This document shows, piece after piece, positions 5,781-42,550 of a stretch of 42,550 nt of DNA; the first letter of the stretch is position 1; the number at the start of each line of letters is the position of its first letter. The notes beneath the pieces were generated by a model, which ran no database searches, had not been told where the DNA came from, and saw only the letters and a list, made by a program, of their open reading frames with translations. The DNA comes from a virus. The DNA lies in IMG/VR virus record IMGVR_UViG_3300018875_000010, positions 1 to 42,550 of that record, one strand, 5' to 3'. Both the position numbers and the translations under genes were made by a program.

Positions 5781-5826
5781 TAATCCTCCGCTTCCTCCAA
5801 TCACTCTCATTCAAAGGATCAAGACA

Positions 5827-6105: not shown

Positions 6106-6118
6106 TCGCGTCCCCTTG

Positions 6119-6134
6119 GTTCCTTCATCGCAAC
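6119..6134. promoter_or_regulatory. GTTCC-N6-GGAAC element (GTTCC TTCATC GCAAC)
   Basis: One mismatch. Intergenic, upstream of the SSB gene. Confidence 0.5.
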
Positions 6135-6157
6135 TGTCTCTTCACTGGAACTATGCA

Positions 6158-6907
6158 ATGGCTGACAATAAGCGTCCGAAACTGCCCTCGTTCATCACCC
6201 CGAAGCTGGTCTTCAAGTTCCCGAAGCTGATCGAGCCGGACTACGGTTCGACCGAGTATCCGAAACCGGATGGTGAGTTCTCCACCAAGGGCATCGCCAA
6301 GTTGAGCGATCCCGCCGTGCAGGCTTTCCTCCAGAAGCTGAACCCTCTGCATGAAGAGGCCATCGCCAAGGCCGAGGAGGAGTTCAAGAAGCTGAAGGTG
6401 GAGACCCGCAAGAAGCTCGGCAAGGTTCAGGTCAACGACCTCTTCACGACCCTCTACGATCAGGAGACCGAGGAGCCTACTGGCGACATCGAGTTCAAGT
6501 TCGCCATGAAGCACCGGATCGAGATTAAGAAGGGTCCGAACGCGGGTAAGGTCATCACCAAGTACCCGGCTCTCTTCGACGCGAAGGGCAAGCCGATCAT
6601 CGTCCGTGACAAGCAGGGCAAGACCCTCGCCAACGCTCCGCAGATTTGGGGCGGCACGGTCGGCAAGGTCTCATTCGAGGCTTCCCCGTATTTCATCCCC
6701 GGCACCGGTGCGGCTGGCCTGAAGCTGGCGCTCACCGCTGTCCAGATCATCGACCTTGTGTCCGGTGGTCAGCGTTCCGCATCGAGCTACGGCTTCGGTG
6801 AGGAAGACGGCTACGAAGCGGAAGACTTCGACAACGAGACCTCGGAGGATACCGAGGCAGAAGGTAATGGCGACGAGGCGTCGAACGACGAAGACGACGA
6901 CTTCTAA
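6158..6907 (+). CDS. single-stranded DNA-binding protein (T7 gp2.5-like)
   Basis: T7 synteny. Acidic C-terminal tail ends in Phe (NDEDDDF), as in T7 gp2.5. Start taken at MADNKRPKLP. Confidence 0.8.
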   Translation: MADNKRPKLPSFITPKLVFKFPKLIEPDYGSTEYPKPDGEFSTKGIAKLSDPAVQAFLQKLNPLHEEAIAKAEEEFKKLKVETRKKLGKVQVNDLFTTLYDQETEEPTGDIEFKFAMKHRIEIKKGPNAGKVITKYPALFDAKGKPIIVRDKQGKTLANAPQIWGGTVGKVSFEASPYFIPGTGAAGLKLALTAVQIIDLVSGGQRSASSYGFGEEDGYEAEDFDNETSEDTEAEGNGDEASNDEDDDF

Positions 6908-7349
6908 GCGCAAGCCTCGCCTATGGGGCGGTCCCCTCAGTGGGACCGATCCCGGCCTAGAACATGGGTTCCGTAGTGGCCTTGAAGACAAGGTCGCTGC
7001 GGAGCTTGAGGCGGCTGGCGTCCCGGTTGTCTACGAGAACCCGGACAGTGTGATCCACTACGTCAAGCCCGCGACCAAGTCTCGATACACCCCCGACTTC
7101 GTCCTCCCCAACGGCATCATCGTTGAGACCAAAGGACGGTTCATCACGGCGGATCGTAAGAAGCACCTTCTCATCAAGCAGCAGCATCCCGAGAAGGACA
7201 TCCGGTTCGTCTTCTCCAATTCCCGTCAGCGTATCTCGAAGCAATCGAAGACCACCTACGGAATGTGGTGCGAGAAGTACGGCTTCCAGTACGCGGACAA
7301 GAGCATCCCCGAGGAGTGGCTGAAAGAGCCACCCAAGAGAAATGCGTAA
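6867..7349 (+). CDS. endonuclease I / Holliday-junction resolvase (T7 gp3-like)
   Basis: SGLEDKV...YTPDFVLPNGIIVETKG...DRKKHLLIKQQHPE.DIRFVFS...EKYGFQYADK.IPEEWLKEP matches the remembered T7 gp3 closely. Start is approximate. Confidence 0.9.
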   Translation: MATRRRTTKTTTSKRKPRLWGGPLSGTDPGLEHGFRSGLEDKVAAELEAAGVPVVYENPDSVIHYVKPATKSRYTPDFVLPNGIIVETKGRFITADRKKHLLIKQQHPEKDIRFVFSNSRQRISKQSKTTYGMWCEKYGFQYADKSIPEEWLKEPPKRNA

Positions 7350-7923
7350 GATCACCCACATCGTAATCCACTGCACCGCAACGCCTGCGGGCAAGGAGGT
7401 GACTGTCAAAGAGATAGATCGTTGGCACCGTGCCCGTGGCTTTGCGAAGATCGGCTACCACTATGTCATCCACCTCGACGGCTCCGTCTCTGTTGGACGT
7501 AAGGAGTCCGAGGCGGGCGCTCATGTGGCAGGCCATAACGCAACCACCATCGGCATCTCCTATGTCGGTGGCGTCGATGCAAACGACATCAACAAGGCTC
7601 GGGACACCCGCACTCCCGCACAGAAGGCAGCGATGGAGAAGCTCGTTCGTGAGTTGCTCACTCGCTATCCTGGCGCTGAAGTCCTCGGCCATCGTGACTT
7701 CCCCGGCGTAGCCAAAGCCTGCCCGTCATTCGACGCTCGGGCATGGTGGAAGTCCGTCGATAAGGTTGTCCCTGAAATGGGACCGGTCGAGTTCGTGCAG
7801 GCTGTCGAGGGGGACACCCTCTCGAAGATCGCCCGCGAACACGGCATGAGCCTCACTGAAATTCGCAAGCTCAATCCCGGCGTGGAGGAGCTTCGGATCG
7901 GACAGAAGGTCCGCGTGGTGTAG
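7342..7923 (+). CDS. N-acetylmuramoyl-L-alanine amidase (T7 gp3.5 lysozyme-like) with C-terminal LysM domain
   Basis: IVIHCTATP...GYHYVI...GHN...HRD....KACPSF amidase_2 pattern. C-terminal LysM-like GDTLSKIAREHGMSLTEIRKLNP. Confidence 0.9.
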   Translation: MRKITHIVIHCTATPAGKEVTVKEIDRWHRARGFAKIGYHYVIHLDGSVSVGRKESEAGAHVAGHNATTIGISYVGGVDANDINKARDTRTPAQKAAMEKLVRELLTRYPGAEVLGHRDFPGVAKACPSFDARAWWKSVDKVVPEMGPVEFVQAVEGDTLSKIAREHGMSLTEIRKLNPGVEELRIGQKVRVV

Positions 7924-14239: not shown

Positions 14240-14355
14240 TGAGCAAGCCCACCAAGAAGCCCGAGCCTCTTCGGTGCCAGTGTGGGAAGCCTCTTGTGGA
14301 GGGGGATTACTGCCCCCTCCCGGTCGGCAAACCCTGCCCGAGGATCGCCCGATGA
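14239..14355 (+). CDS. possible 38-aa Cys-rich peptide
   Basis: TGATG overlap upstream and ATGA overlap downstream. Four Cys residues. Hand-translated; below the cutoff. Confidence 0.35.
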   Translation: MSKPTKKPEPLRCQCGKPLVEGDYCPLPVGKPCPRIAR

Positions 14356-15331: not shown

Positions 15332-15708
15332 CGAACCCTTCCGCTTACCCCGACGACAACCCGAAGACCATCTTCGGTCTCGCCAAGCCGGGTATCCGCT
15401 TTATCCCCAACTCGGCTCTCATCTACCTCGGTCAGGCTATGGCCGAGGGTGCCCGCAAGTATGGGCCGATGAACTGGCGCGAGAAGAAGGTCTCCACGTC
15501 AGTCTACTACGACGCCGGTATGCGTCACCGGATGCGCTTTTGGGATGGCGAGGACTTCGACCCCGAGAGTGGCTTCCATCACCTCGCTCACTCGATGGCG
15601 TGTGACGCGATCATCCTCGACGCCCTGACGGTCGGCAACCTCAACGATGACAGGTTCGCCCCCGGCAACGTCTCCGAACTCATCCAGCAACTGACGAAGA
15701 AGGACTAA
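15322..15708 (+). CDS. DUF5664-type dATP/dGTP diphosphohydrolase-like protein
   Basis: GTG start lies inside a palindrome copy, with SD AAGGAG 7 nt upstream. AMAEGARKYGPMNWRE...RHRMRFWDGEDFDPESGFHHLAH matches the family pattern as remembered. Confidence 0.65.
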   Translation: MTAPNPSAYPDDNPKTIFGLAKPGIRFIPNSALIYLGQAMAEGARKYGPMNWREKKVSTSVYYDAGMRHRMRFWDGEDFDPESGFHHLAHSMACDAIILDALTVGNLNDDRFAPGNVSELIQQLTKKD

Positions 15709-15710
15709 CC

Positions 15711-16184
15711 ATGCCCGGAATTAGCGAACTCGCCCGCGAAGAGGCCGAGAACGGCCAGCTTCAGCTTGACCTCAACGACAACCCTCTGACCGCAGCGGTG
15801 CGGGAGTTCCGCGAGACGTTCGACGCTTCGACGGACCCTGCCCTGTGGGAGAAGCTGATCCGCGAGGAGGAGAAGGAAGTGGCCGATGCGTTCGCCGCTC
15901 TCCTGAAGGAAATCGCTGACCTCGACTACGTCATGGAAGGCTACACGCAGGTCGGCGGAAATCTGGAGGCTCTCGGCTCCATGCGCCTGACCCCGCTGGT
16001 CCTCTCCTTCATCTCGATCCTGCCGCCGCCGATCCGCTTGGAGGCCCTCAACCGCACTCATGCGTCCAACATGAGCAAGCTCGGGGAGGACGGCAAGCCG
16101 ATCCGCCGCGAGGACGGAAAGGTTCTGAAGGGACCCAACTACAAACCCGCTGATCTTTCAGACCTAACGTACATCAAGGACTAA
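15711..16184 (+). CDS. MazG-like nucleoside triphosphate pyrophosphohydrolase
   Basis: EEEKEVADAFAALLKEIADLDYV and HASNMSKLGEDGKPIRREDGKVLKGPNYKPADL are typical of small MazG-family enzymes. Confidence 0.7.
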   Translation: MPGISELAREEAENGQLQLDLNDNPLTAAVREFRETFDASTDPALWEKLIREEEKEVADAFAALLKEIADLDYVMEGYTQVGGNLEALGSMRLTPLVLSFISILPPPIRLEALNRTHASNMSKLGEDGKPIRREDGKVLKGPNYKPADLSDLTYIKD

Positions 16185-32400: not shown

Positions 32401-33015
32401 GCTCGGTCGGTGATCGAGGCGATGCGGCGGAAGGTCCCCGGATACTCGGACGACCTCGATCCTCGCCGGAACGTCCTCGGTGAGAAGCAGTACATTCCCC
32501 CGGCGCTCGGTCCTGATTGGCTGTCCCCGGTGGTGACGGGCTACAACAAGAACGACACACAGCCCATCACTGAGGAATGGAAGCGGACCCCGAAGGAGGA
32601 CGTTTACGACGAACTCTCTCGGGTCACGTTCCTGAACAACAGCCCGATCCGTCAGCCGGCCCGTATGCAGTACGGCGTTGACCTCACACAGTACCGCTCC
32701 CCGGACACTGGCTACACAGCCTATGACCGCTATCAGGAGCTTGTAGGTGTCGTGAAGGACAACGATGGGCTGACCCTGAAGGAGCGACTTGGGGAACTCT
32801 TCAAGTCGGACGAGTACAAGAACGTCCTCGGGGACGGTGACATCGGCGTGGATGGTGGACGTATCGAAGCTATCCGCAACGTCGTTGGTGCCTTCCGTCA
32901 GATGGCGCTTGACCAACTCCGTCAGGAAATCCCGCAACTGCACTACGACCTGATCGAGGGACAACGCAAGGAGTTCCTCTCGAAGGTCCAAGAGCAGTAT
33001 CGACCAACTGAATAA
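29410..33015 (+). CDS. large internal virion (ejection) protein (gp16 position)
   Basis: 1201 aa. Call rests on position and size. Confidence 0.75.
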   Translation: MEPVELTPEDLLQAEKTRLELQKLMEQDPSMLESVGSGIVEGAKEAPFQAARGVQEGMNEVSDTSFSIAKWLNDNVIDLGHLKFGGDAKGGAGPEGFVQWFPGMPEQNNLKFGEDTLVGEAPKTVIGNLTNDIAQFVGGYATLGRLFKTTSVAGGVAHGMVKGAIVDAAAFDPHEERLANLIEQHTDFAKPVTDFLAARPDDTEAEGRFKNALEGLVLGGMTDAVFHAVRAVRFKQMGKMDEAAAALDEVEKAEAAAKAKPTEESAATAPKEEAKPEEPKKEEEQLNLDLGDTPQDTFTGTRGENGKLKPEDLAPDVPPKTGPFKDIKPVVKLSEEDLQHLDNMRTAELGFGQGRNLSGIRTDLWEVDEDINQNVSAIARQYGDRMRRMMGGNADGVRSWDRTRANAEKFADLIGEDPRILFQRMRAMHKENFMADAEMLAYRDVMATANARLEEAAEAIANSNYNYATGKFKSVAEAREAFAKHWEILANTQLMYKGLQTSFARTMNSFKIAAKARNGLLEGADPDAMWKGGPEAMQKMARQVLANRGNLAANAKAARRGFVQKFFDVVQEFQINSLLSGPKTHLVNMVSGVFNSAFLPAEKMLYGAAKLDLATAREAAEQYWGMVMSAREAAQLAAKAFKAGDPVLDPTHGGAEHRAAISAANFNITDPVASAVVNGLGNLVRIPSRFLAAEDEFLKQINYRAAIRAQAWREARAEGKEGKAFSEHVATRLNEAISPTGSAFNAKGEALNERALRQAREATYTQDLGAESGTWFGNQTLGQSIQNFAAAHPYLRTIVPFIRTPTNLFRFVHNRTPVLNLLRKQYAYDFMGKNGQEAADRARAQFLSGGLLWAGAISYVHSGDVTGAGPTDPDIRKALMDTGWRPYSIRVEKEDGTVQYVQYNRFDPFGMFLGLAADFAEVSGAYPERDLDETALAMTTALAKNLNNKSYLTGIINGLGAMAEPERRGEFFLQGLASGFVPNFMQQSLNDDPYFREARSVIEAMRRKVPGYSDDLDPRRNVLGEKQYIPPALGPDWLSPVVTGYNKNDTQPITEEWKRTPKEDVYDELSRVTFLNNSPIRQPARMQYGVDLTQYRSPDTGYTAYDRYQELVGVVKDNDGLTLKERLGELFKSDEYKNVLGDGDIGVDGGRIEAIRNVVGAFRQMALDQLRQEIPQLHYDLIEGQRKEFLSKVQEQYRPTE
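30203..30217. repeat. 15-bp palindrome, 14/15 (CC centre)
   Basis: In 29410..33015; reads SAATAP. Confidence 0.85.
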
Positions 33016-33018
33016 CCG

Positions 33019-33033
33019 GTGCAGTCACTGCAC
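33019..33033. repeat. 15-bp palindrome, exact
   Basis: 3 nt after a stop codon; a terminator follows. Confidence 0.95.
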
Positions 33034-33040
33034 TAATCGT

Positions 33041-33074
33041 GGCCCTCGGAGCGATCCGGGGGCCTTTCTCTTTT
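33041..33074 (+). terminator. rho-independent terminator before the tail-fibre gene
   Basis: GGCCCTCGG (33041-33049) pairs with CCGGGGGCC (33056-33064, one G-U), followed by TTTCTCTTTT. Confidence 0.65.
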
Positions 33075-35681: not shown

Positions 35682-35716
35682 CCTCGGCTAGGGTAACACC
35701 TGCCGGGGCTTTTTTG
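35682..35716 (+). terminator. hairpin plus T-run between the terminase subunit genes
   Basis: CCTCGGC (35682-35688) pairs with GCCGGGG (35702-35708, one G-U), followed by CTTTTTTG. Confidence 0.5.
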
Positions 35717-35737
35717 CGTCTCCTACCCCGTTTTCTG

Positions 35738-37441
35738 ATGAAAGAAGACCTCCTTTCTTCCACCCACTTATCCTCGCAGAAGGACCCGATCAGAGGTGAC
35801 TTCCGTAACTTCCTTTACCTCGTCTGGAAGCACCTCAATCTCCCCGATCCGACACCCATCCAGTACGACATTGCGTCGTTCCTACAGCATGGCCCGAAGC
35901 GTTCGATCATCGAGGCGTTCCGTGGTGTCGGCAAATCGTGGGTAACTTCTGCCTACGTCATCTGGCTCCTACTTCGTGACCCCGATCACAAAATCCTTGT
36001 GGTCTCTGCGTCGAAGATCAGGGCCGACGACTTCACCACATTCACGCTGCGGCTCATCAACGAAATGCCGATCCTTCAGCATCTCAAGCCGAGGGCCGAT
36101 CAGCGTTGCTCGAAGGTGTCCTTTGACGTGGGACCCGCGAAGGCGTCTCACTCCCCGAGCGTGAAATCAGTCGGCATCACCGGTCAGCTTGCGGGTTCTC
36201 GCGCTGACACCATCATTGCCGACGACATCGAAATCCCCAACAACTCCCAAACGCAGGCCATGCGGGACAAGCTGTCTGAACTCGTCAAGGAGTTCGACGC
36301 TATCCTCAAGCCAGGTGGTCGCATCGTCTACCTCGGCACCCCGCAGACCGAACAGTCTCTCTACAACCTCCTCCCCGAGCGCGGCTATCAGGTTCGCGTT
36401 TGGCCCGCCCGTATCCCCGACGAGAAGCAACGGATGGTGTATGGCGAGCGTCTCGCTCCGTACATCGAGGAGCTGATCGACAAAGGCTGGAAGGCGGGTT
36501 CCTCTACGGACCCTCGACGGTTCAACGACGACGACCTCTTCGAGCGTGAAGCCTCTTACGGTAAGGCAGGCTTCGCCCTTCAGTTCATGCTCGACACTCG
36601 CCTCTCGGACGCCGACCGGTATCCGCTGAAGGTCTCCGATCTGATCGTCATGAACATCAACCCGGAGATGGCCCCTCTCAAGTTGGTGTGGGCTGCATCC
36701 CCTGAGTTGGTCCTGAACGAGCTACCGAACGTGGCCTTTGCGGGCGACCGCTATCACCGGCCTATGTTCGTGGAGAAGGATTGGGCACCGTTCACCGGGA
36801 CGGTCATGGCTATCGACCCCTCCGGTCGTGGTGGTGACGAGACCGGCTATGCCATCATCAAGTTCCTCCACGGCTACCTGTATGTGGTCGCTGCGGGAGG
36901 TCTCCCCGGTGGCTACGACGATGAGACCCTCCTGAAGCTGGCACAGATGGCGAAGCTCTATGGGGTCAATCATGTGGTCGTTGAGGCGAACTTCGGTGAC
37001 GGTATGTGGACGAAGCTGTTCACCCCTGTCCTCAACCGCGTCCACCCCTGCATGATCGAGGAGGTCAAACACTCCATGCAGAAGGAGAAGCGGATCATCG
37101 ACACCCTGGAACCGGTCATGATGCGGCACAAGCTCATCATCGACCCCAAGGTCATCGAGCAGGACTACAAGACCGTCTCTCAGTACCCACCGGAGAAGCA
37201 GCAACACTACATGCTCATGCACCAGATGACCCGGATCACGAAGGACCGTGGCGCTCTGGTGAAGGACGACCGCCTCGACGCTCTGGCTATCGCTGTCGCC
37301 TACTGGACAGAACAGATGGCGAGGGACGAGGACAAGGCGGCTGCGGCTCATCGGGAGAAGATGCTGCAAGAGGAGCTAGACAAGTTCCTCGCAGGCTTCG
37401 GCAAGAAGGGTCCAGCAAGGAACCTGTGGGTGCGGGTATAA
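35738..37441 (+). CDS. terminase large subunit (T7 gp19-like)
   Basis: FRGVGKSW, SPSVKSVGITGQLAGSRADTIIADDIE, YLGTPQTE, IDPSGRGGDETGY and DDRLDALA align with the remembered T7 gp19. Start taken at MKEDLL. Confidence 0.95.
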   Translation: MKEDLLSSTHLSSQKDPIRGDFRNFLYLVWKHLNLPDPTPIQYDIASFLQHGPKRSIIEAFRGVGKSWVTSAYVIWLLLRDPDHKILVVSASKIRADDFTTFTLRLINEMPILQHLKPRADQRCSKVSFDVGPAKASHSPSVKSVGITGQLAGSRADTIIADDIEIPNNSQTQAMRDKLSELVKEFDAILKPGGRIVYLGTPQTEQSLYNLLPERGYQVRVWPARIPDEKQRMVYGERLAPYIEELIDKGWKAGSSTDPRRFNDDDLFEREASYGKAGFALQFMLDTRLSDADRYPLKVSDLIVMNINPEMAPLKLVWAASPELVLNELPNVAFAGDRYHRPMFVEKDWAPFTGTVMAIDPSGRGGDETGYAIIKFLHGYLYVVAAGGLPGGYDDETLLKLAQMAKLYGVNHVVVEANFGDGMWTKLFTPVLNRVHPCMIEEVKHSMQKEKRIIDTLEPVMMRHKLIIDPKVIEQDYKTVSQYPPEKQQHYMLMHQMTRITKDRGALVKDDRLDALAIAVAYWTEQMARDEDKAAAAHREKMLQEELDKFLAGFGKKGPARNLWVRV

Positions 37442-37456
37442 GTGCAGTCACTGCAC
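37442..37456. repeat. 15-bp palindrome, exact
   Basis: Starts the base after the terminase stop. Confidence 0.95.
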
Positions 37457-37481
37457 CGGTAGCGTCCGCGCCTTTTTAGAA

Positions 37482-37498
37482 GTGCAGTATCACTGTAC
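37482..37498. repeat. spacer-expanded palindrome variant GTGCAGT-ATC-ACTGtAC
   Basis: Same 7-nt arms (one mismatch) with a 3-nt centre. Confidence 0.7.
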
Positions 37499-37507
37499 CT
37501 GTCATAA

Positions 37508-37524
37508 GTGCAGTGGTACTGCAC
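37508..37524. repeat. spacer-expanded palindrome variant GTGCAGT-GGT-ACTGCAC
   Basis: Perfect arms with a 3-nt centre. Lies 3 nt before the promoter. Confidence 0.8.
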
Positions 37525-37527
37525 CTT

Positions 37528-37547
37528 AATTAACCCTCACCTTCAGG
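37528..37547 (+). promoter_or_regulatory. T3-like phage RNAP promoter after the terminase gene (phi-OR position)
   Basis: AATTAACCCTCACCTTCAGG. The first 13 nt are identical to the T3 promoter AATTAACCCTCAC. Confidence 0.8.
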
Positions 37548-37669
37548 GGGGACCGGAGGTCCCCATCCTATAGGGTATTCAAATAAGTGTACTTAAAGGT
37601 TACATAGGGGTCTCGGGGGTCCTGCTTCGCAGGCCCTCCCTTCGACCCCTACTACCTTGGTTATGCCCT

Positions 37670-37927
37670 ATGAGACTGACCTCCTCACTTCTCCTCCTCC
37701 CCCTCCTCTCCTCCCCGGTCCTTGCCTGCCCCTCCTATGACGTGGGCTGCATCAACCGGGAGAACTCCTATAGGTACTCTCAGCAATCCCAGGAGTGGGC
37801 CTATAGGGAGCAGCAGAAGATGCAGCAGTGGCAAACACAGAACCAGCTTCGCCACATGCAGGACCAGATGACCCACATGAACCACCAATACGGTCATCGT
37901 ATAGGAAGCCCGTACAGGCCCTTCTAG
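37670..37927 (+). CDS. possible Gln-rich lipoprotein (85 aa)
   Basis: Lipobox-like LLLLPLLSSPVLAC. Weak RBS and atypical codons (AGG, ATA). Confidence 0.35.
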   Translation: MRLTSSLLLLPLLSSPVLACPSYDVGCINRENSYRYSQQSQEWAYREQQKMQQWQTQNQLRHMQDQMTHMNHQYGHRIGSPYRPF

Positions 37928-38179
37928 TGGCCTCGGGTACTTCCCTACTCTTGGGGTCTTCTTTGGCCGTCTACGGCCTCCGTAGGCCATCCTACGGGGG
38001 TTTCTTTGGGGACACTTGGGGTTTACTGAGGGGACCTGGATGTTTTGGTGCAAAAATCTGAGAGCCTTCCCCACGCTACGGCGAGGCCCTAGTCCCCCAT
38101 AGCCCCCAAACTGGCCGATCCTCGACCCTTCGGGTCGGCCCAAAGCTGACCTTCGGTCACAACTCCGGTCACAGCCTTC

Positions 38180-38193
38180 GGCTAAGTCATTGA
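38180..38193 (+). repeat. 14-bp direct repeat GGCTAAGTCATTGA, copy 1
   Basis: Identical to 38535-38548. Confidence 0.8.
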
Positions 38194-38282
38194 AATCATT
38201 AGCATTGCAATAGATTAAAGATGGGGTGGACTGCCCTATCGGGGCCTTTGAGGGGACCTTGAGGGGCCTCTATGGGGCATTG

Positions 38283-38297
38283 GTGCAGTCACTGCAT
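38283..38297. repeat. 15-bp palindrome, 14/15
   Basis: In the non-coding end region. Confidence 0.85.
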
Positions 38298-38316
38298 GTT
38301 TCCTGCCTTCGTTTTG

Positions 38317-38332
38317 CATCTATTGTTTTCGA
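38317..38332 (+). repeat. 16-bp direct repeat CATCTATTGTTTTCGA, copy 1
   Basis: Identical to 38505-38520. Confidence 0.8.
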
Positions 38333-38386
38333 CTCCATCCACCTCAGTCCACCTCAAGGGACACCATCGGTCCACCATCGGGACCG

Positions 38387-38401
38387 GTGCAGTGGCTGCA
38401 C
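38387..38401. repeat. 15-bp palindrome, 14/15 (GG centre)
   Basis: In the non-coding end region, flanked by CCG on the left. Confidence 0.85.
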
Positions 38402-38434
38402 CTATAGGCTAGGGCCGTTGGCCCATTGGACACC

Positions 38435-38489
38435 AAATCAGTCCACCAAATCAGCCCGCAAATCAGTCCAAATCAGCTACCCAAATCAG
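38435..38489 (+). repeat. iteron-like array, 5 x AAATCAG spaced 10-13 bp
   Basis: AAATCAG at 38435, 38448, 38460, 38470 and 38483. Three copies extend to CAAATCAGTCCA. Confidence 0.7.
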
Positions 38490-38504
38490 TCCACCAAACG
38501 GGAC

Positions 38505-38520
38505 CATCTATTGTTTTCGA
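38505..38520 (+). repeat. 16-bp direct repeat CATCTATTGTTTTCGA, copy 2
   Basis: Identical to 38317-38332. Confidence 0.8.
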
Positions 38521-38534
38521 GGTGACTGTGACGG

Positions 38535-38548
38535 GGCTAAGTCATTGA
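38535..38548 (+). repeat. 14-bp direct repeat GGCTAAGTCATTGA, copy 2
   Basis: Identical to 38180-38193. Confidence 0.8.
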
Positions 38549-38583
38549 GACACAAGGCAAATCAAAAAAGTTCAAAAAAAGTG

Positions 38584-38623
38584 CAATTAGTCCCTTGACG
38601 GGAACAGTTCCCTCGATTAGCTT
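38584..38623 (+). promoter_or_regulatory. sigma70-type early promoter (copy B of the duplicated cassette) with upstream A-tracts
   Basis: -35 TTGACG (38595-38600), 17-nt spacer, -10 TAGCTT (38618-38623). AAAAAAGTTCAAAAAAA upstream resembles an UP element. Confidence 0.6.
38590..38605. promoter_or_regulatory. GTTCC-N6-GGAAC element (GTCCC TTGACG GGAAC)
   Basis: One mismatch. The N6 spacer is the -35 box of promoter copy B. Confidence 0.55.
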
Positions 38624-38804
38624 AATGACCATCGACGGACGCCAAACGGCCTCCCGAGATGGTCGGAGCGAAGAAAGCCCGAACGCCACATAAGGCCCGC
38701 GAGGGGCACAAGGCTAAGGCTCGATCCTCCTACCGCTCTTTGACAAGTAAATCCGCTCCCTACTGATCCGCATGAAGCGGGATCGAGGCCGAAGCCGAGG
38801 TCAT

Positions 38805-38819
38805 GTGCAGTGACTGCAC
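38805..38819. repeat. 15-bp palindrome, exact (G centre)
   Basis: In the early leader, 65 nt upstream of HH-A. Confidence 0.95.
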
Positions 38820-38883
38820 CATACGAGGCGACAGCAGAGCCAAGTCAAGCGAGGCGAAGCACGGCAAGCGATCCAAGGTAGGG

Positions 38884-38943
38884 CCTTAGCGTAGAGGGAA
38901 TGGTCCCTCCTGAAGAGACCCGCGACGGGTCGAAACGCTAAGG
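38884..38943 (+). ncRNA. hammerhead ribozyme HH-A (type III), predicted cleavage after A38893
   Basis: Stem III CCUUAGCGU/ACGCUAAGG. GUA triplet. Stem I GAGGGA-AUGG-UCCCUC. Core CUGAAGA. Stem II GACCCG-CGA-CGGGUC. GAAA. Confidence 0.8.
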
Positions 38944-38952
38944 AGAAGCATC

Positions 38953-39753
38953 ATGTTCGATACGGTCAACGAAGCCGAAGCCTTCACCAAGGAAGAGACC
39001 AAGTCCGGTTATGACTGGACCGGCGATAACTTCCTGAAGGATTGCGCCGAGACCATCAACGAACGCTATGCCCGAGCCAAGGCTGCGACCCGCAACTCGC
39101 TCGAAGACCTCCGGGTCGTCGGTGAGAGACTGAACGAAGCCAAGGAGTTCTTCAGCGACAAGGGCAAGGGTGCGTTCGGTGGATGGGTCGAAGCCCAAGG
39201 CTTCCCGTTCGATAAGACTTGGCGGGCACGTCTCATGAAGCTGGCTGCTAACTGGGACGCCATCATGGAGGCTGTCGAAGCCTTGCCTGAAGACAAGCGC
39301 AAGTGGTCGGTGGATGGCGTCTTGGCTATCTGGGCCGCTGCGGAAAAGGCCAAGGCACAGCCCGAAGGTGACACCCAAGGTGAAGCCGAAGGTGAAACCG
39401 AAGGCGAACCCAAGGCCAAGGCTAAGAAAGAGACCGAAGCCGAGCGGCTGCGTCGGGAACTGGCTGAAGCTCTCGAACTGATCGAGAAGCTGAAGGCAGA
39501 GAACGAGGCACTCAAGGCCAAGGCTGACGGTGGAGCCAAGGCGAAGGCCAAGGCGAAGCCCGAGGAACCCAAGGCAGGCAACACTGGCACAGTCGATGCC
39601 GTCACCAAGAAGCGGGCCTCTAAGGTGTGGGGTCTCTACACCCGAGGCGCTACCGATGGTGAGAAAGACGCTGCAAAGGCACGTCTCGAAGAGATGGCCG
39701 CGAAGTTCGGTCTGGACTTCGACGCCTTCGTCAAAGCCTGCGGGCTTGCTTAA
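38953..39753 (+). CDS. early protein, DUF3102-like N-terminal domain plus Lys/Ala/Glu-rich coiled coil
   Basis: SD AAGGAG. VGERLNEAKEFF....GAFGGWVEAQGF...TWRARLMKLA resembles DUF3102 as remembered. Confidence 0.65.
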   Translation: MFDTVNEAEAFTKEETKSGYDWTGDNFLKDCAETINERYARAKAATRNSLEDLRVVGERLNEAKEFFSDKGKGAFGGWVEAQGFPFDKTWRARLMKLAANWDAIMEAVEALPEDKRKWSVDGVLAIWAAAEKAKAQPEGDTQGEAEGETEGEPKAKAKKETEAERLRRELAEALELIEKLKAENEALKAKADGGAKAKAKAKPEEPKAGNTGTVDAVTKKRASKVWGLYTRGATDGEKDAAKARLEEMAAKFGLDFDAFVKACGLA

Positions 39754-39765
39754 TTTGCGCGGACG

Positions 39766-39781
39766 GTTCCGTAACAGGAAC
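39766..39781. promoter_or_regulatory. GTTCC-N6-GGAAC element, perfect
   Basis: GTTCC GTAACA GGAAC, after the stop at 39753. The extended hairpin's 3' arm (GTCCCGCG) reaches the HH-B stem III strand GCGU (39788-39791). Confidence 0.6.
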
Positions 39782-39787
39782 TGTCCC

Positions 39788-39839
39788 GCGTCTTGGACTG
39801 ATGCCGTCCAACTGATGAGGCCAAGGCAGGCCGAAACGC
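39788..39839 (+). ncRNA. hammerhead ribozyme HH-B (type III), predicted cleavage after C39792
   Basis: Stem III GCGU/ACGC (4 bp). GUC triplet. Stem I UUGGAC-UGAUGCC-GUCCAA. Core CUGAUGA. Stem II GGCC-AAGGCA-GGCC. GAAA. Confidence 0.8.
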
Positions 39840-39863
39840 AAATCAACGCTAAGGAGAAGTGAC

Positions 39864-40208
39864 ATGCGCGAAGCTCGTATCATCCTCCCTCTCGCTGACA
39901 ACGACGGGAAGCCGGTTGATACCGCTCATGAGTACCTGAAGGGTCGCCTCTGCCGTCTCTTTGGCGGCTTCACGGCTACTCCGGTTATGGGCGGCTGGAT
40001 GGATGACAGCGGGCGGCTCTATGAAGACCGCTCAATCGCCTATGACGTGGCGATGGAAGACACCTACGAGAACGCCCGCAAGGTCGGCTCGATTGCCGAG
40101 ATTGCAGGTCAGATGGCGAAGCAACTCGCCATGTATGTGCGGCTCCCGAATGGGAACGTCCAAATCCTCAACATCGAACCCGCAGCCGAAGCCGCAAAGG
40201 CTGCTTAA
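39864..40208 (+). CDS. early hypothetical protein (114 aa)
   Basis: SD AAGGAG. Clean ORF. Confidence 0.65.
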   Translation: MREARIILPLADNDGKPVDTAHEYLKGRLCRLFGGFTATPVMGGWMDDSGRLYEDRSIAYDVAMEDTYENARKVGSIAEIAGQMAKQLAMYVRLPNGNVQILNIEPAAEAAKAA

Positions 40209-40221
40209 TCGCGCCCCTACG

Positions 40222-40237
40222 GTTCCCCTTCAGGAAC
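40222..40237. promoter_or_regulatory. GTTCC-N6-GGAAC element, perfect
   Basis: ACGGTTCC-CCTTCA-GGAACCGT. The 3' arm overlaps the HH-C stem III strand. Confidence 0.6.
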
Positions 40238-40297
40238 CGTTCGGTCTTCCCCTGAAGCCGGGGAACTGATGAGCCGAAGGCACGGCGAAACCGAACG
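40238..40297 (+). ncRNA. hammerhead ribozyme HH-C (type III), predicted cleavage after C40246
   Basis: Stem III CGUUCGGU/ACCGAACG. GUC triplet. Stem I UUCCCC-UGAAGCC-GGGGAA. Core CUGAUGA. Stem II GCCG-AAGGCA-CGGC. GAAA. Confidence 0.85.
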
Positions 40298-40311
40298 CTA
40301 AGGAGACAGCT

Positions 40312-40656
40312 ATGGAACTGCTTACCGATGCCATCAAGGAAGCCTTGCTTGCCAATGGACGCCGCACGGCCCAAGGCGAGACCATAGACCCGCATCCGGT
40401 CTGTAAACTCTTTACACCGGACGCCGGGGCTACCTGGCTCTTGACGGAATTGGACCCGCTCGATCCCGACATGGCCTTCGGTCTCTGTGACCTTGGGCTA
40501 GGCGAACCCGAGATTGGCTATGTGTCATTGACCGAAATCAAAGCCATCCGGGGACGCCTCGGGCTACCCGTTGAGCGGGACCTCTACTTCAACGCCACCC
40601 TGCCCTTGAGCCTCTACGCTGAGAGGGCACGACTCCAAGGGTGCATTGCAGCCTAA
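40312..40656 (+). CDS. DUF2958-family protein
   Basis: KLFTPDAGATWLLTELDP....AFGLCDLGLGEPEIGYVSLTEI...RGRLGLPVERDLYF is the DUF2958 pattern as remembered. Confidence 0.8.
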   Translation: MELLTDAIKEALLANGRRTAQGETIDPHPVCKLFTPDAGATWLLTELDPLDPDMAFGLCDLGLGEPEIGYVSLTEIKAIRGRLGLPVERDLYFNATLPLSLYAERARLQGCIAA

Positions 40657-40658
40657 AC

Positions 40659-40673
40659 GTGCAGTCACTGCAC
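40659..40673. repeat. 15-bp palindrome, exact
   Basis: 2 nt after the stop of 40312..40656; directly abuts HH-D. Confidence 0.95.
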
Positions 40674-40674
40674 C

Positions 40675-40753
40675 TATACACCGCCTGATGAGACCATAGG
40701 GTCGAAACCTAGAGAGGGTGCTTTAGTTTCCCTCTCGACGGTCGCGGTGGATA
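40675..40753 (+). ncRNA. hammerhead ribozyme HH-D (type I), predicted cleavage after C40743
   Basis: Stem I UAUACACCGC/GCGGUGGAUA (one mismatch). Core CUGAUGA. Stem II GACC-AUAG-GGUC. GAAA. Stem III ACC..GAGAGGG-loop-CCCUCUC..GGU. GUC triplet. Confidence 0.7.
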
Positions 40754-40783
40754 CCCCTTTTGAGCCTACGCCGCACCGATCAA

Positions 40784-40799
40784 ATTCCTGTCAAGGAAC
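40784..40799. promoter_or_regulatory. GTTCC-N6-GGAAC element (ATTCC TGTCAA GGAAC)
   Basis: One mismatch. Upstream of the first MarR-like gene. Confidence 0.45.
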
Positions 40800-40815
40800 A
40801 AACCCATTATTGACT

Positions 40816-40835
40816 TGAACCCAAAAATGGGTTCA
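40816..40835. promoter_or_regulatory. perfect 20-bp palindrome TGAACCCA-AAAA-TGGGTTCA, candidate operator upstream of the first MarR-like gene
   Basis: Abuts a TTGACT hexamer (40810-40815), 26 nt upstream of the ATG at 40861. Confidence 0.5.
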
Positions 40836-40860
40836 TCTCCGTGCGCCAAGGGCAATAAGA

Positions 40861-41175
40861 ATGAGAATCCACCAACAGCTTTGGGACATGGGACAAGCCG
40901 TCCGTGCCGTAGACCCGAAATTCGATGTCACGGCATGGCTGGTCTTTCTTTATGTCGCCAAGAACCCTGGCACAGGTTCAGCGTCCATCGTCAAGGAACT
41001 CGACCTGTCCCAAAGCACGCTCTCTCGGACAGTGATTTACCTGTCCAATCTGCCTAACGGCTTAAACCTGATAGCGATGGAGCCGAACCCGGAGGATCGG
41101 AGACAGCACCGTCTTTATCTGACCGAGAAAGGTGAGGCTTTCCTAAAGTCGCTGCGTAAAATCATTGGGGGCTAA
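40861..41175 (+). CDS. MarR-like winged-helix regulator (104 aa)
   Basis: GTGSASIVKELDLSQSTLSRTVIYL....EPNPEDRRQHRLYLTEKGEAF shows the MarR HTH-plus-wing pattern. Confidence 0.7.
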   Translation: MRIHQQLWDMGQAVRAVDPKFDVTAWLVFLYVAKNPGTGSASIVKELDLSQSTLSRTVIYLSNLPNGLNLIAMEPNPEDRRQHRLYLTEKGEAFLKSLRKIIGG

Positions 41176-41217
41176 GACCCTCAGATCACCTCAGAACTCG
41201 ATGTGTGTGTCCGTTGG

Positions 41218-41232
41218 GTGCAGTGACTGCAC
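41218..41232. repeat. 15-bp palindrome, exact (G centre)
   Basis: Intergenic, after the first MarR-like gene. Confidence 0.95.
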
Positions 41233-41330
41233 CTGACGCGGGAGGTCGCATCCCAAAGCTGCCTCCCACTTGGTCGCCTAACTTGGGACGAAGGATAAAC
41301 CGTACAGAATAAACGGGGACTACAAAAACC

Positions 41331-41702
41331 ATGACAACTAAGTTCGCTAAAGGCTTAACCATTCCGTCTTATGCCGAACTGTTCCTTGAGTGGAACGGTG
41401 ACATGCGCTCTCCGTTTCGCTATACGAAGGACGAGGAAGGTACTGTCGAGGTGCAGTTTGGCCCGATGTATCTGTCCATTGACATCGTCCGTAACAAGAA
41501 ACGACTGACCCTAGAAAGGACATTCAATGGCTATGAAGCCGCTCTCCCGAGCGATCATGTTCGTCGAGGAGTTCCGCAAAGTAGACCCGGAGCTTCCGAT
41601 GCACTCGGCCTTGATCCTCCTTCTGATAGCTCAGAAGCCGGGGATCAACCTCAAGGAACTCGTTCAAGCGACCGGGCTGGTGAAGTCGAGCGTGTCGCGT
41701 AA
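41331..41702 (+). CDS. questionable ORF; only the first ~65 codons look protein-like
   Basis: Overlaps 41527..41859 by 176 nt in another frame. The tail is R/S/G/P-rich, as expected for off-frame reading. Confidence 0.25.
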   Translation: MTTKFAKGLTIPSYAELFLEWNGDMRSPFRYTKDEEGTVEVQFGPMYLSIDIVRNKKRLTLERTFNGYEAALPSDHVRRGVPQSRPGASDALGLDPPSDSSEAGDQPQGTRSSDRAGEVERVA

Positions 41703-41859
41703 TGTTGCCGCCCTCTCAAAAGAGTACGGGGGCAAGGGCCTCATCACCATGACCGAAGACCCTGCGGATCGTCGGAACAAGGTCGTGAAGCTCACTCTTG
41801 AGGGCGAACGTATGGTGCGTTCGCTCCTTCACTACATCGGAGAAGAGGAGACCGTCTAA
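41527..41859 (+). CDS. MarR-like winged-helix regulator (110 aa), paralogue of 40861..41175
   Basis: SD AAAGGA. GINLKELVQATGLVKSSVSRNVAAL....EDPADRRNKVVKLTLEGERM. Stop overlaps the integrase start (TAATG). Confidence 0.7.
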   Translation: MAMKPLSRAIMFVEEFRKVDPELPMHSALILLLIAQKPGINLKELVQATGLVKSSVSRNVAALSKEYGGKGLITMTEDPADRRNKVVKLTLEGERMVRSLLHYIGEEETV

Positions 41860-42550
41860 TGGCAGTAAGGCCAAGAGGCAAAGGCTGGCAAGCCGACATC
41901 ACGGTCAAGGGTCGAAGGTACAGAGAGACCTTCGAGACCGAGGCCGCAGCTAAGGCTTGGGAGCATGAGGCAAGGGCCGCAGTCCTACGCGGGGACCCTT
42001 TACCACGCGCTAACGGTTCCTCTGACGGGACCCCTCCTGAAGGCGAACAGATCGACAGAGGGAACAATACCCTTGGGGCGATCCTCGACCGCACCTTCCA
42101 AAGGTTCTGGAAAGGCGGCGCATCCGAGAAAACCATGCTGATCTACATGAGGCAGTTGGAGGCTTACTTCGGGGCCGCAACCCCGATCCATCAGATCGAC
42201 ACGAACGCCATCGACGGGTTCATCGACTACAACATCGCCAATCACAACTCGAATGGCTCCGTGAACCGGAAGCTGGCTTGTCTGTCCAAGGCGCTCCGCT
42301 ACGCCCGAGACCGAGGGATCATCCAGTTCATCCCGAAGATCGAGCGCAAGAAGGAGGGCATCGGTCGTATCCGCTGGCTGACCCCGGAGGAAGAGAAGGC
42401 TCTGCTAGACCTCCTCCGCTCCTGGGAGAAGCCGGAACACGCCGAGGTCGTCACGCTCCTCATCGACACCGGAATGAGGCCCAAGGAACTCTATAGCTTG
42501 GCCCCTCGGGACGTGGACCTGAAGCACGACACCATCACTATCTGGAAGAC
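41859..42550 (+). CDS. int: tyrosine integrase, N-terminal part (continues at 128..479 after circular closure)
   Basis: ATG at 41859. The frame stays open to the window end and is in phase with 1..479. Confidence 0.9.
   Translation, partial: MAVRPRGKGWQADITVKGRRYRETFETEAAAKAWEHEARAAVLRGDPLPRANGSSDGTPPEGEQIDRGNNTLGAILDRTFQRFWKGGASEKTMLIYMRQLEAYFGAATPIHQIDTNAIDGFIDYNIANHNSNGSVNRKLACLSKALRYARDRGIIQFIPKIERKKEGIGRIRWLTPEEEKALLDLLRSWEKPEHAEVVTLLIDTGMRPKELYSLAPRDVDLKHDTITIWK
42424..42550 (+). repeat. 127-bp terminal overlap, identical to 1-127 (assembly circularisation)
   Basis: Base-by-base identity checked by eye. Confidence 0.95.

Follow-up and report, generated by a model that had tools for sequence, protein, structure and literature searches.

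In phage T7, the polycistronic early RNA made by the host polymerase is cut between its cistrons by host RNase III, as described by Dunn and Studier; the enzyme acts on long imperfect double-stranded RNA hairpins and leaves 5'-phosphate and 3'-OH ends. Hammerhead ribozymes have been engineered as insulators (RiboJ), where trimming of the 5' untranslated region (UTR) insulates the downstream gene from its upstream context, and as synthetic switches, designed by Ogawa and Maeda and by Wieland and Hartig, in which cleavage frees a Shine-Dalgarno sequence buried in a stem. The closest natural systems were described in 2011 by Perreault et al., who reported clustered hammerheads that flank single prophage genes (Fig. 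3 and Figs S1 to S3 of PMC3088659), found that the flanked genes are not constant, and proposed the function that we consider here, cleavage into per-gene RNAs (PMC3088659). Prophage transcripts of approximately 2 kb were tested and all of the ribozymes cleaved; for Azorhizobium caulinodans, where two ribozymes were tested, in vitro cleavage was complete and full-length RNA was undetectable (PMC3088659). The triple hammerhead of Agrobacterium tumefaciens C58 cleaves in vitro and in Escherichia coli, and in haloviruses HF1 and HF2 the HHphage hammerhead precedes the opening gene of a polycistronic early transcript by 13 nt, counted to the start codon, with the 5' end mapped for this transcript falling within 3 nt of the hammerhead cleavage site (PMC3088659).

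In this study, we analyzed a 42,550-nt stretch of viral DNA (the window), which represents a temperate T7-like phage with a circular genome of 42,423 bp. Four hammerheads, HH-A to HH-D, bracket three single genes, all on the coding (+) strand (Table 1). We consider it probable, at roughly 0.8, that this is an early operon with four cis-acting hammerheads that cut the early transcript into single-gene mRNAs. The original prediction described three complete type III hammerheads; every sequence detail was confirmed to the base, and a re-reading of the structures placed cleavage after the same nucleotides (38893, 39792, and 40246). However, it missed a fourth, HH-D, which is of type I. Two MarR genes and an integrase lie within 1.5 kb downstream of the cluster; the integrase, which follows the MarR-type genes, spans the circular junction and is followed by tRNA-Leu and a T7-type RNA polymerase, and this context defines the region as the early/lysogeny region.

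Table 1. Features of the hammerhead-punctuated early region (positions in the window)
Feature	Position	Strand	Detail
Candidate host-RNA-polymerase early promoter	38595..38623	+	A-tract UP element, TTGACG, 17-nt spacer, TAGCTT
HH-A, leader hammerhead, type III	38884..38943	+	Cleavage predicted after A38893
Early gene A	38953..39753	+	266 aa; no known family; kept in all related loci
Hairpin, gene A 3' UTR	39757..39791	+	Core GGACGGUUCC/GGAACUGUCC
HH-B, intercistronic hammerhead, type III	39788..39839	+	Cleavage predicted after C39792
Early gene 2	39864..40208	+	114 aa; PHROG 3543, function unknown (E 1.6e-11)
Hairpin, gene 2 3' UTR	40215..40244	+	ACGGUUCC/GGAACCGU
HH-C, intercistronic hammerhead, type III	40238..40297	+	Cleavage predicted after C40246
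Early gene 3	40312..40656	+	114 aa; DUF2958, PF11171 (E 3e-42)
Palindrome GTGCAGTCACTGCAC	40659..40673	+	One copy of a genome-wide repeat; between gene 3 stop codon and HH-D
HH-D, terminal hammerhead, type I	40679..40749	+	Downstream of gene 3; cleavage predicted after C40743
Downstream regulatory module	40861..41859	+	Two MarR-type genes, 40861-41175 and 41527-41859

The original prediction knew of no described cistron-by-cistron arrangement in a T7-like early operon; however, clustered gene-flanking hammerheads were published in 2011, albeit without a T7-like label (PMC3088659). The window has the layout of the published prophage clusters, with several gene-co-oriented hammerheads flanking single genes near an integrase. 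Moreover, one of the related loci, L092, is the A. caulinodans ORS571 prophage itself, as judged from five exact matches to the primers of Perreault et al. 2011, and the published amplicon spans the L092 orthologues of HH-A and HH-B, the latter at L092:6823-6876. The arrangement is therefore not new: it was described in 2011, and an orthologous pair was cleaved in vitro. In this prophage (L092 and L004, which come from one contig, IMGVR_UViG_641228476_000004), gene A is 66% and the RNA polymerase 73% identical to the window's. As in the window, a type III hammerhead with a 9-bp stem III precedes gene A, a type III hammerhead with UGCC/GGCA loops follows it, a type I hammerhead of the HH-D kind lies further on, and the same GTGCAGTGACTGCAC palindrome is present; however, the prophage has one intercistronic hammerhead fewer than the window, and different genes lie between its hammerheads.

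Transcription of the first operon probably depends on host RNA polymerase and starts from the conserved promoter in Table 1, whose spacer holds the inverted repeat GGGAACAGTTCCC. A strict sigma-70 consensus scan called no promoter, so this assignment is a candidate whose sole support is conservation: the same layout is also present upstream of gene A in L092, L098, and L001. A transcript that started near 38630 would carry a leader of approximately 264 nt before the HH-A cleavage site. Gene A shares 64 to 67% amino acid identity with its counterparts in L012 and L001, and best-segment tblastn identity to the remaining related loci is 61 to 79%. Searches of Pfam, PHROGs, and NCBIfam yielded no function for gene A or gene 2, an IMG/VR search with gene 2 yielded no relatives, and positions 38000 to 42550 had no match in the INPHARED phage collection by blastn in distant mode. 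The 15-nt palindrome upstream of HH-D forms a hairpin of only 6 bp.

The core strand C3-U4-G5-A6-N7-G8-A9 is intact in all four motifs (CUGAAGA in HH-A and CUGAUGA in HH-B, HH-C, and HH-D); the published acceptance rule allows any base at N7 (PMC3088659). All four also have G12-A13-A14, the A15.1-U16.1 pair, and a non-G nucleotide at N17 (A in HH-A and C elsewhere), and the core-adjacent pairs are standard (1.1-2.1, G-C or U-A; 10.1-11.1, G-C; 15.1-16.1, A-U). The lengths of stems I/II/III are 6/6/9 bp in HH-A, 6/4/4 bp in HH-B, 6/4/8 bp in HH-C, and 6/4/3+7 bp in HH-D. HH-A pairs GAGGGA/UCCCUC in stem I, GACCCG/CGGGUC (followed by GAAA) in stem II, and CCUUAGCGU/ACGCUAAGG in stem III; HH-B has UUGGAC/GUCCAA, GGCC/GGCC, and GCGU/ACGC, respectively. 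Stems I and II are UUCCCC/GGGGAA and GCCG/CGGC in HH-C and CACCGC/GCGGUG and GACC/GGUC in HH-D, which has a long stem III (ACC..GAGAGGG/CCCUCUC..GGU). Since HH-D is predicted to be cut near its 3' end, the ribozyme body would stay on the 3' end of the upstream RNA.

Might these motifs be chance matches, or decayed and inactive relics of hammerheads? We scanned both strands of the whole window with our own descriptor (core, GAA, A15.1-U16.1 pair, non-G N17, and three helices) and obtained exactly four matches in 42.5 kb, namely HH-A to HH-D, with all core positions intact, against a mean of 0.01 in 100 dinucleotide-preserving shuffles; other T7-like loci, approximately 850 kb in all, yielded a single additional hammerhead. 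At the gathering threshold, the Rfam scan reported tRNA only, and hammerheads surfaced when an E-value threshold was used. Hammerhead_3 (RF00008) then matched HH-C at 42.8 bits (E 3.6e-6) and HH-B at 37.8 bits (E 9.7e-5) over the whole window, both below the gathering score of 48.5; HH-A had no match in the Rfam scan, and HH-D matched HH9 weakly (17.2 bits against a cut-off of 52). These results would favor chance or decay, as would the apparent loss of the consensus at the HH-A and HH-B positions of L001; however, the gathering cut-off is an operational filter and not a property that defines hammerheads. Two covariance models whose alignments contained relatives but not the window matched HH-B (75.2 bits, E 3e-22) and HH-C (70.4 bits, E 1e-20; both R1) and HH-A (64.4 bits, E 1e-19; R2). 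The covariance-model check suggested with the original prediction thus succeeded only for HH-B and HH-C, below the cut-off, with RF00008 and for all three type III motifs with the relatives-only models. Given the shuffle count, these models, and the strong covariation outlined below, together with orthologues that are experimentally active (PMC3088659), we regard chance or decay as effectively refuted. Both covariance models also gave a weak match at 6327 to 6381, which is coding sequence where CAUGAAGA and GAGG replace the core; we rejected it as a chance match.

Core conservation in homologous phages, on which the original prediction depended, was borne out, with hammerheads in the same intergenic slots in L092, L012, L098, L099, and L100. 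All five of these loci carry HH-A orthologues, and the leader class, taken over six loci, shows compensatory changes in all three stems. In the intercistronic class (10 hammerheads), 99.4% of cells form standard pairs and 10 of the 18 pairs have changed on both sides; none of 500 shuffles reached the observed covariation score, and slid controls paired at 29 to 42%. One of the double changes falls in the loop I/loop II pseudoknot. Orthologues of HH-D with covarying stems were found at L092:7975-8042, L099:2747-2815, and L012:15337-15409, along with a type II permutation at L001:7593-7660; L001 appears to be without the hammerhead consensus at the HH-A and HH-B positions. The helix covariation first noticed between the copies in the window therefore extends to relatives, and homologues at the same intergenic positions, with compensatory changes in their stems and pseudoknot, support the structural reading. 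By core, helices, and covariation, the four motifs are hammerheads (Rfam clan CL00010). A descriptor match at L012:14225-14307, with a 42-nt "loop I," was an artifact overlapping the true hammerhead at 14256 to 14309.

The original prediction also proposed a GGCA/UGCC contact between loops, and this is kept in relatives. Loop II is AAGGCA in both intercistronic hammerheads of the window; with loop I it would form a 4-bp UGCC/GGCA pseudoknot in HH-B (loop I UGAUGCC) and a 3-bp GCC/GGC contact in HH-C (loop I UGAAGCC). The contact is preserved in 10 homologues, with a compensatory C-G to U-A change in L099 and L100, which are closely related, so that this is probably a single event. No tertiary contact between stems I and II is evident in HH-D. 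Likewise, none is evident in HH-A, the loops of which are very short (AUGG and CGA); HH-A may for these reasons be slow at physiological Mg2+. For HH-A and HH-D, energy minimization returns the hammerhead fold. For HH-C, that fold is less stable than the minimum-free-energy fold by 3.4 kcal/mol under a nearest-neighbor energy model alone, with a diffuse ensemble, and the minimum-free-energy fold of HH-B uses a different closing helix, UUUGCG/CGCAAA. These unfavorable fold predictions for HH-B and HH-C, like the below-cut-off Rfam scores, weigh against processing of the transcript into per-gene mRNAs.

From these structures, we infer that HH-A to HH-D would cleave themselves and that cleavage may affect mRNA stability and translation. 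Each ribozyme would fold and cut itself as the RNA is made: HH-A would remove the leader, HH-B and HH-C would split the three cistrons apart, and HH-D would trim the operon tail before the MarR/integrase module. Cleavage at all four sites would yield RNAs of 899 nt (38894-39792), 454 nt (39793-40246), and 497 nt (40247-40743). All three mRNAs would start with a 5'-OH, after which would come the two hairpins (stems I and II) of the type III ribozyme and then CGCUAAGGAG, a consensus Shine-Dalgarno sequence; each would end in a 2',3'-cyclic phosphate just past a stable hairpin, the 3' end of the third being the whole of HH-D. The outcome would resemble that of host RNase III on the T7 early transcript, with no need for the host enzyme, and would make every early gene independent of its neighbors and of the leader in stability and translation.

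The elements follow one another in a fixed cassette: a stop codon, 29 to 35 nt with a hairpin, a 52-nt hammerhead, the Shine-Dalgarno sequence, and ATG, with a predicted 5' UTR of 59 to 71 nt after cleavage. An equivalent hairpin precedes eight of the nine intercistronic hammerheads in the window and its relatives. The GCGC at the base of the gene A hairpin has a second possible partner, the 5' strand of HH-B stem III (GCGU), and the outer CC/GG pairs of the gene 2 hairpin extend into the 5' strand of HH-C stem III. The extended hairpin and stem III compete for the same 4 nt, a further point against per-gene processing. According to single-sequence folds, on which this idea rests, a segment upstream of the hairpin would mimic the 3' strand of stem III and capture its 5' strand after cleavage, making cleavage irreversible and capping the upstream mRNA with a flush hairpin; after HH-B cleavage, for example, the gene A hairpin would become a nearly flush 3'-terminal hairpin. 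The leader differs from the intercistronic class in its Shine-Dalgarno sequence. That of gene A lies inside the 3' strand (ACGCUAAGG in HH-A) of the unusually long stem III in all six leader orthologues, and its predicted accessibility rises from 0.06-0.34 to 0.32-0.70 once the 5' fragment is removed; in the intercistronic class, predicted accessibility is unchanged by cleavage. On these models, we tentatively suggest that HH-A may be a natural cleavage-gated translational switch and that the intercistronic cassettes may hold a conformational switch, which together would amount to a host-independent replacement for RNase III.

It is also conceivable that active ribozymes lower or time-limit early expression instead of making stable monocistronic mRNAs: the 5'-OH and 2',3'-cyclic phosphate ends would be exposed to host nucleases, and this could help to keep the early genes quiet in the lysogen or to shut them off quickly after infection. 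There is a precedent in the glmS ribozyme, the 5'-OH cleavage product of which is reportedly degraded by RNase J1, a finding attributed to Collins et al. in 2007 and listed in a review (PMC6765202). An integrase and two MarR genes lie directly downstream in this temperate phage; cleavage could be modulated, since the extended upstream hairpin competes with stem III; and regulated cleavage was raised as a possibility for phage hammerheads by Perreault et al. (PMC3088659). However, the products keep structure at their ends, 5' ribozyme hairpins and a flush 3' hairpin, which suggests protection rather than exposure. Furthermore, a strong consensus Shine-Dalgarno sequence lies at a fixed distance downstream of each hammerhead, and in the leader class it is predicted to become more accessible on cleavage; we therefore consider dampened expression unlikely.

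The genes between the hammerheads vary: the window has PHROG 3543 and DUF2958, L099 has open reading frames of 54, 53, 148, and 47 aa, and L012 has others. Cassettes that stay alike while the intervening genes differ, in line with the inconstant flanked genes of Perreault et al. (PMC3088659), would be expected if the approximately 110-nt cassettes acted mainly as DNA linkers for the swapping of accessory genes by homologous recombination, with the ribozyme secondary. We think this improbable, because the stems vary between copies yet stay complementary, which points to selection on RNA pairing and lowers the DNA identity available for recombination, and because the invariant positions are exactly those of the catalytic core. 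Linker and RNA-cleavage functions are not mutually exclusive. The cassettes also flank discrete segments, and hammerheads with tertiary contacts can ligate, so that pairs of ribozymes might excise a segment that is later ligated into circular or spliced RNA in the manner of viroids or retrozymes, as Perreault et al. mentioned; however, they sought such products from prophage clusters and found none (PMC3088659). Here, each segment is an ordinary protein-coding gene that has its own Shine-Dalgarno sequence, and the 3' end would be tied up in the post-cleavage hairpin; we judge this alternative very improbable. Per-gene processing of the early RNA remains our preferred reading.

The likeness to T7 is one of functional analogy, not membership. 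Processing would occur at the same genomic place and with the same outcome, and the upstream product would end in a hairpin in both; however, the ends predicted from self-cleavage of the window's RNA are 5'-OH and 2',3'-cyclic phosphate, and the window's intergenic hairpins are only 10 to 14 bp, whereas T7-type RNase III signals are hairpins of approximately 20 bp or longer. Two cultured temperate T7-like phages, Pseudomonas phage LUZ100 (OP329100) and Rhizobium phage Pasto (MT708545), share the window's synteny (early genes, MarR or helix-turn-helix regulator, integrase, tRNA-Leu, and RNA polymerase), and host promoters are annotated in the early region of LUZ100. A scan of both genomes with the hammerhead descriptor found none, and their RNA polymerases are only approximately 42% identical to the window's, which suggests that the ribozyme-punctuated operon is a trait of a narrower clade. 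In A. tumefaciens C58, the genes flanked by hammerheads are ardA and a hypothetical gene, and marR and an integrase follow shortly downstream, which is the module order of the window; however, that is a different prophage with different genes, ArdA is not encoded in the window, and the primer sequences suggest that its hammerheads are unlike the window's in sequence and topology. HHphage of HF1 and HF2 resembles HH-A as a leader-trimming ribozyme, but it occurs singly, has a variant core, and belongs to an archaeal virus. The design logic of the window is that of the engineered insulators and switches, with HH-A having the Shine-Dalgarno sequence in a stem, except that the engineered ones are synthetic. 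Literature searches turned up no natural counterpart of the Shine-Dalgarno-in-stem design, and the text of Perreault et al. 2011 has no T7-like label and no discussion of RNase III, Shine-Dalgarno sequences, or 3' hairpins (PMC3088659). The T7-like context, the Shine-Dalgarno sequence buried in the leader stem III, and the hairpin that would capture the cleaved 3' end may be new.

In conclusion, the purpose of the hundreds of hammerheads in bacteria and phages was still undefined according to a 2019 review (PMC6765202), and this locus adds no new principle but sharpens the question. Its hairpin, ribozyme, and Shine-Dalgarno sequence recur as a strict cassette, which provides ready-made natural insulator parts for alphaproteobacterial synthetic biology. 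A culturable model for the window is also at hand in the A. caulinodans ORS571 prophage, where the orthologous ribozymes are known to cleave, so that Shine-Dalgarno unmasking and capping of the 3' end by the post-cleavage hairpin become directly testable. Finally, the unit in which this ribozyme cluster sits is a defined one, the early operon, probably transcribed by the host polymerase, of a temperate T7-like phage, and this is where T7 relies on host RNase III.

In this analysis, we have confirmed that hammerhead ribozymes stand before successive genes of the phage early operon, and the observation has been extended by a fourth ribozyme; the arrangement itself is not new. The original prediction listed three type III hammerheads, HH-A, HH-B, and HH-C, which the sequence matches in every detail; absent from that list was HH-D, a type I hammerhead. 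The fourth element was added by a descriptor written for this analysis, which covers all three hammerhead topologies and demands a CUGANGA core, GAA, an A15.1-U16.1 pair, a non-G cleavage-site nucleotide (N17), at least 4 bp in stem I, and at least 3 bp in each of stems II and III. Across the whole window, with both strands scanned, it gave four matches, HH-A to HH-D, against a mean of 0.01 in 100 dinucleotide-preserving shuffles of the window. Folded in context, HH-A and HH-D have the hammerhead as their minimum-free-energy structure; HH-B and HH-C have rival folds of comparable energy in calculations that ignore tertiary contacts.

Positions of the features discussed
Feature	Position	Strand	Description
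tRNA-Leu(CAA)	1105-1192		between integrase and RNA polymerase
RNA polymerase	1498-4047	+	T7-type, single subunit
Large terminase	35714-37441	+	T7-type
Noncoding stretch	37442-38600		repeat rich, between terminase and early promoter
Iteron-like repeats	38340-38493		five, CAAATCAGTCCA type
Candidate early promoter	38595-38623		A-tract/TTGACG-N17-TAGCTT
Inverted repeat	38601-38613		GGGAACAGTTCCC, inside promoter spacer
Leader box	38731-38750		CGCTCTTTGACAAGTAAATC
HH-A	38884-38943	+	CCUUAGCGU-A-GAGGGA-AUGG-UCCCUC-CUGAAGA-GACCCG-CGA-CGGGUC-GAA-ACGCUAAGG
HH-B	39788-39839	+	GCGU-C-UUGGAC-UGAUGCC-GUCCAA-CUGAUGA-GGCC-AAGGCA-GGCC-GAA-ACGC
HH-C	40238-40297	+	CGUUCGGU-C-UUCCCC-UGAAGCC-GGGGAA-CUGAUGA-GCCG-AAGGCA-CGGC-GAA-ACCGAACG
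HH-D	40679-40749	+	type I, directly after third gene; descriptor match

As assembled, the window closes into a circle with a true length of 42,423 bp, since its first and last 127 nt (1-127 and 42424-42550) are identical; the circular junction falls within a 351-aa tyrosine integrase, and all long ORFs lie on the + strand. The terminase is followed by the early/lysogeny region of a temperate T7-like phage, in the order approximately 1.5 kb of noncoding DNA, HH-A, gene A (266 aa, no family), HH-B, a 114-aa PHROG 3543 gene, HH-C, a DUF2958 gene, HH-D, two MarR-type genes, the integrase, tRNA-Leu (likely the attP region), and RNA polymerase. This synteny is shared with the cultured phages LUZ100 and Pasto.

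An element whose position and form are kept upstream of gene A in relatives is the likely early promoter; it was not among the calls of a scan for the strict consensus. Transcription starting there would give a leader of approximately 264 nt, to be removed by HH-A. The inverted repeat inside its spacer, similar to repeats in the related loci L098 and L001, may be an operator, possibly one bound by the MarR-type proteins whose genes lie downstream. The leader also holds a conserved box, present in all relatives, that contains TTGACA without a recognizable -10 element; it directly adjoins the leader hammerhead in L092 and L012 and is separated from it in the window by approximately 130 nt that include a palindrome copy. 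The noncoding stretch after the terminase, which may be a replication or packaging end region of the T7-like genome, carries two copies each of CATCTATTGTTTTCGA and GGCTAAGTCATTGA besides the iteron-like repeats, and three palindrome variants cluster at 37442-37526.

The palindrome, the 15-nt GTGCAGTSACTGCAC, most often with C as the next base, is present at 28 sites in the window (approximately 0.6 expected), within and between genes, including 196, 4086, 7923, 18168, 33019, 35186, 37442, 38805, 40659, and 41218; read on the + strand, 20 copies have C at the center and 8 have G. The Azorhizobium caulinodans prophage, L098, and L099 carry it as well; in L095 it makes up the stem III of one type I hammerhead, and in L099 a prehammerhead hairpin. 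In L012, L098, and L099, several ATGs take their Shine-Dalgarno sequence from a one-base variant, GTGGAGTGACTGCACC. The palindrome could be an RNA hairpin (6-bp stem, 3-nt loop) or the binding site of a dimeric protein. One A. caulinodans primer of Perreault et al. 2011 includes GTGCAGTGACTGCAC, the palindrome dispersed across the window. The model of the Bradyrhizobiaceae sRNA BjrC68 gave weak matches at the same place in the window (33008-33074; 22.9 bits, E = 0.09) and L012 (7361-7428; 25.3 bits, E = 0.017), just after the gene for a 1201-aa internal virion protein; the match overlaps a palindrome copy.

The original prediction had proposed a search with the Rfam hammerhead models. At gathering thresholds, the sole match reported in the window was the tRNA, and no hammerhead was called. 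With E-value reporting, Hammerhead_3 (RF00008) matched HH-C (42.8 bits, whole-window E = 3.6e-6) and HH-B (37.8 bits, whole-window E = 9.7e-5), but both fall under the gathering score of 48.5, and HH-A was not matched; HH-D weakly matched HH9 (17.2 bits), and no other ribozyme class was detected in the whole window. Type III copies split into two classes, the leader class (the HH-A kind) and the intercistronic class (the HH-B and HH-C kind), and a covariance model was built for each from relatives alone, with the window excluded. The intercistronic model scored HH-B at 75.2 bits (E = 3e-22), HH-C at 70.4 bits (E = 1e-20), and HH-A at 28.8 bits; the leader model scored HH-A at 64.4 bits (E = 1e-19). 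A weak match common to both models, at 6327-6381, was rejected as coding sequence lacking a hammerhead core.

Related loci were gathered via RNA polymerase, terminase, and gene A, and the closest all carry hammerheads in the same operon. The types, in order, are III, III, I in L092 (the prophage of A. caulinodans ORS571); III, III, I, I, I, II in L012 (= L094 = L101); III, III, III in L098; III, III, III, III, I in L099; III, III, III, III in L100; III, I in L095; and I, II in L001 (Chelatococcus sambhunathii). Other loci with T7-like terminases, approximately 850 kb in all, yielded a single further hammerhead, and none was found in LUZ100 or Pasto. The leader class always stands immediately before gene A, with a 9-bp stem III whose 3' strand holds the Shine-Dalgarno sequence; members of the intercistronic class measure 52 nt and have YNNUGCC as loop I and ANGGCA as loop II. 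In L012, the closest relative, type I hammerheads at 15337-15409 and 15815-15872 overlap the end of the upstream ORF, whose stop codon is the UGA within the CUGACGA core. The L001 positions orthologous to HH-A and HH-B (5470-5560 and 6412-6560) lack a hammerhead core and an Rfam match and hold other GC-rich structured sequence between CUAAGCG and CGCUUAG, which could represent hammerheads that have decayed or some other element. The IMG/VR viral contigs L105, L106, L108, L109, and L110 each carry a single type III hammerhead with the UGCC/GGCA loop pair; therefore, this subtype is not confined to the clade of the window.

In an ungapped alignment of ten intercistronic copies, 99.4% of cells hold standard pairs, with changes on both sides in 10 of 18 pairs; the observed covariation score was reached by none of 500 shuffles, and pairing falls to 29-42% when the partner is slid by 1-3 columns. 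The UGCC/GGCA pseudoknot between loops I and II that had been proposed is conserved in this alignment, with one compensatory change, to UGUC/GACA, in the fourth hammerheads of L099 and L100, probably a single event because these loci are close relatives; HH-C retains three of the four pairs. The six leader copies differ in sequence in all three stems and keep complementarity. Covariation is also seen in the HH-D class, in stems I and II and the distal part of stem III; the L001 member of this class is circularly permuted to type II.

The original prediction knew of no described cistron-by-cistron arrangement in a T7-like early operon; Perreault et al. 2011 (PMC3088659) had already described such clusters in prophages, this lineage included. 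They reported that prophage genes near integrases are often individually flanked by multiple hammerheads, proposed that long phage transcripts become mRNAs of operon or single-gene length, and observed cleavage of native transcripts of approximately 2 kb from Clostridium scindens, A. caulinodans ORS571, and Agrobacterium tumefaciens C58. In C58, the three hammerheads surround ardA and one hypothetical gene, with marR and an integrase coming next, and these ribozymes are active in Escherichia coli too (PMC3088659). L092 contains exact matches to five of their A. caulinodans primers, and the orthologues of HH-A (5930-5990) and HH-B (6823-6876) both lie within the amplicon (5394 or 5625 to 7493). 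The RNA polymerase encoded on the same IMG/VR contig is 73% identical to that of the window. Both the arrangement and the phage lineage are therefore already on record and biochemically validated. Nothing is said in that paper of T7-like phages, RNase III, ribosome binding sites, or mRNA stability, our literature searches found no later papers tying hammerheads to T7-like phages, and a 2019 review still regarded the function of hammerheads in bacteria and phages as undefined (PMC6765202).

The interpretation that the early RNA is cut into per-gene RNAs is supported. The most likely mechanism, at a probability of roughly 80%, is that the hammerheads would cleave themselves constitutively during transcription, so that the polycistronic early RNA would yield three structured mRNAs of approximately 899, 454, and 497 nt, each with a single cistron and a 5'-OH end. 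This would be a counterpart, independent of the host, to the RNase III processing of T7. The strongest competing reading is that the purpose of cleavage is to destabilize early transcripts or limit them in time. The intercistronic cassettes are strikingly regular, consisting of a stop codon, 29-35 nt, the 52-nt hammerhead, a Shine-Dalgarno sequence (consensus CGCUAAGGAG or CGCUAGGGG), and ATG, and, alongside either reading of cleavage, they may act in modular gene exchange.

Under constitutive processing into monocistronic mRNAs, the intercistronic copies would leave 5' untranslated regions of 59-71 nt. The spacer is a hairpin (GGACGGUUCC...GGRACCGUCC) in eight of nine cases, and when the RNA upstream of the cut was folded alone, a short segment upstream of this hairpin paired with the 5' strand of stem III, over all four nucleotides in six cases and two in two; ahead of HH-B this segment is GCGC at 39757-39760, and one G-C to C-G exchange in this pairing tracks a change of stem III from GCGU to GGGU. 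From this single-sequence folding, which predicts a nearly flush 3'-terminal hairpin, we infer that capture may help product release and protect the 3' end. For the leader ribozymes, a thermodynamic model gives the Shine-Dalgarno sequence an unpaired probability of 0.06-0.34 in uncleaved RNA and 0.32-0.70 in the isolated 3' product, a rise predicted at all six loci, which suggests that leader cleavage may unmask it; in the intercistronic class, the predicted value is the same before and after cleavage. The placement of the Shine-Dalgarno sequence in stem III of the leader ribozyme and the postcleavage capture hairpin could both repay experiments.
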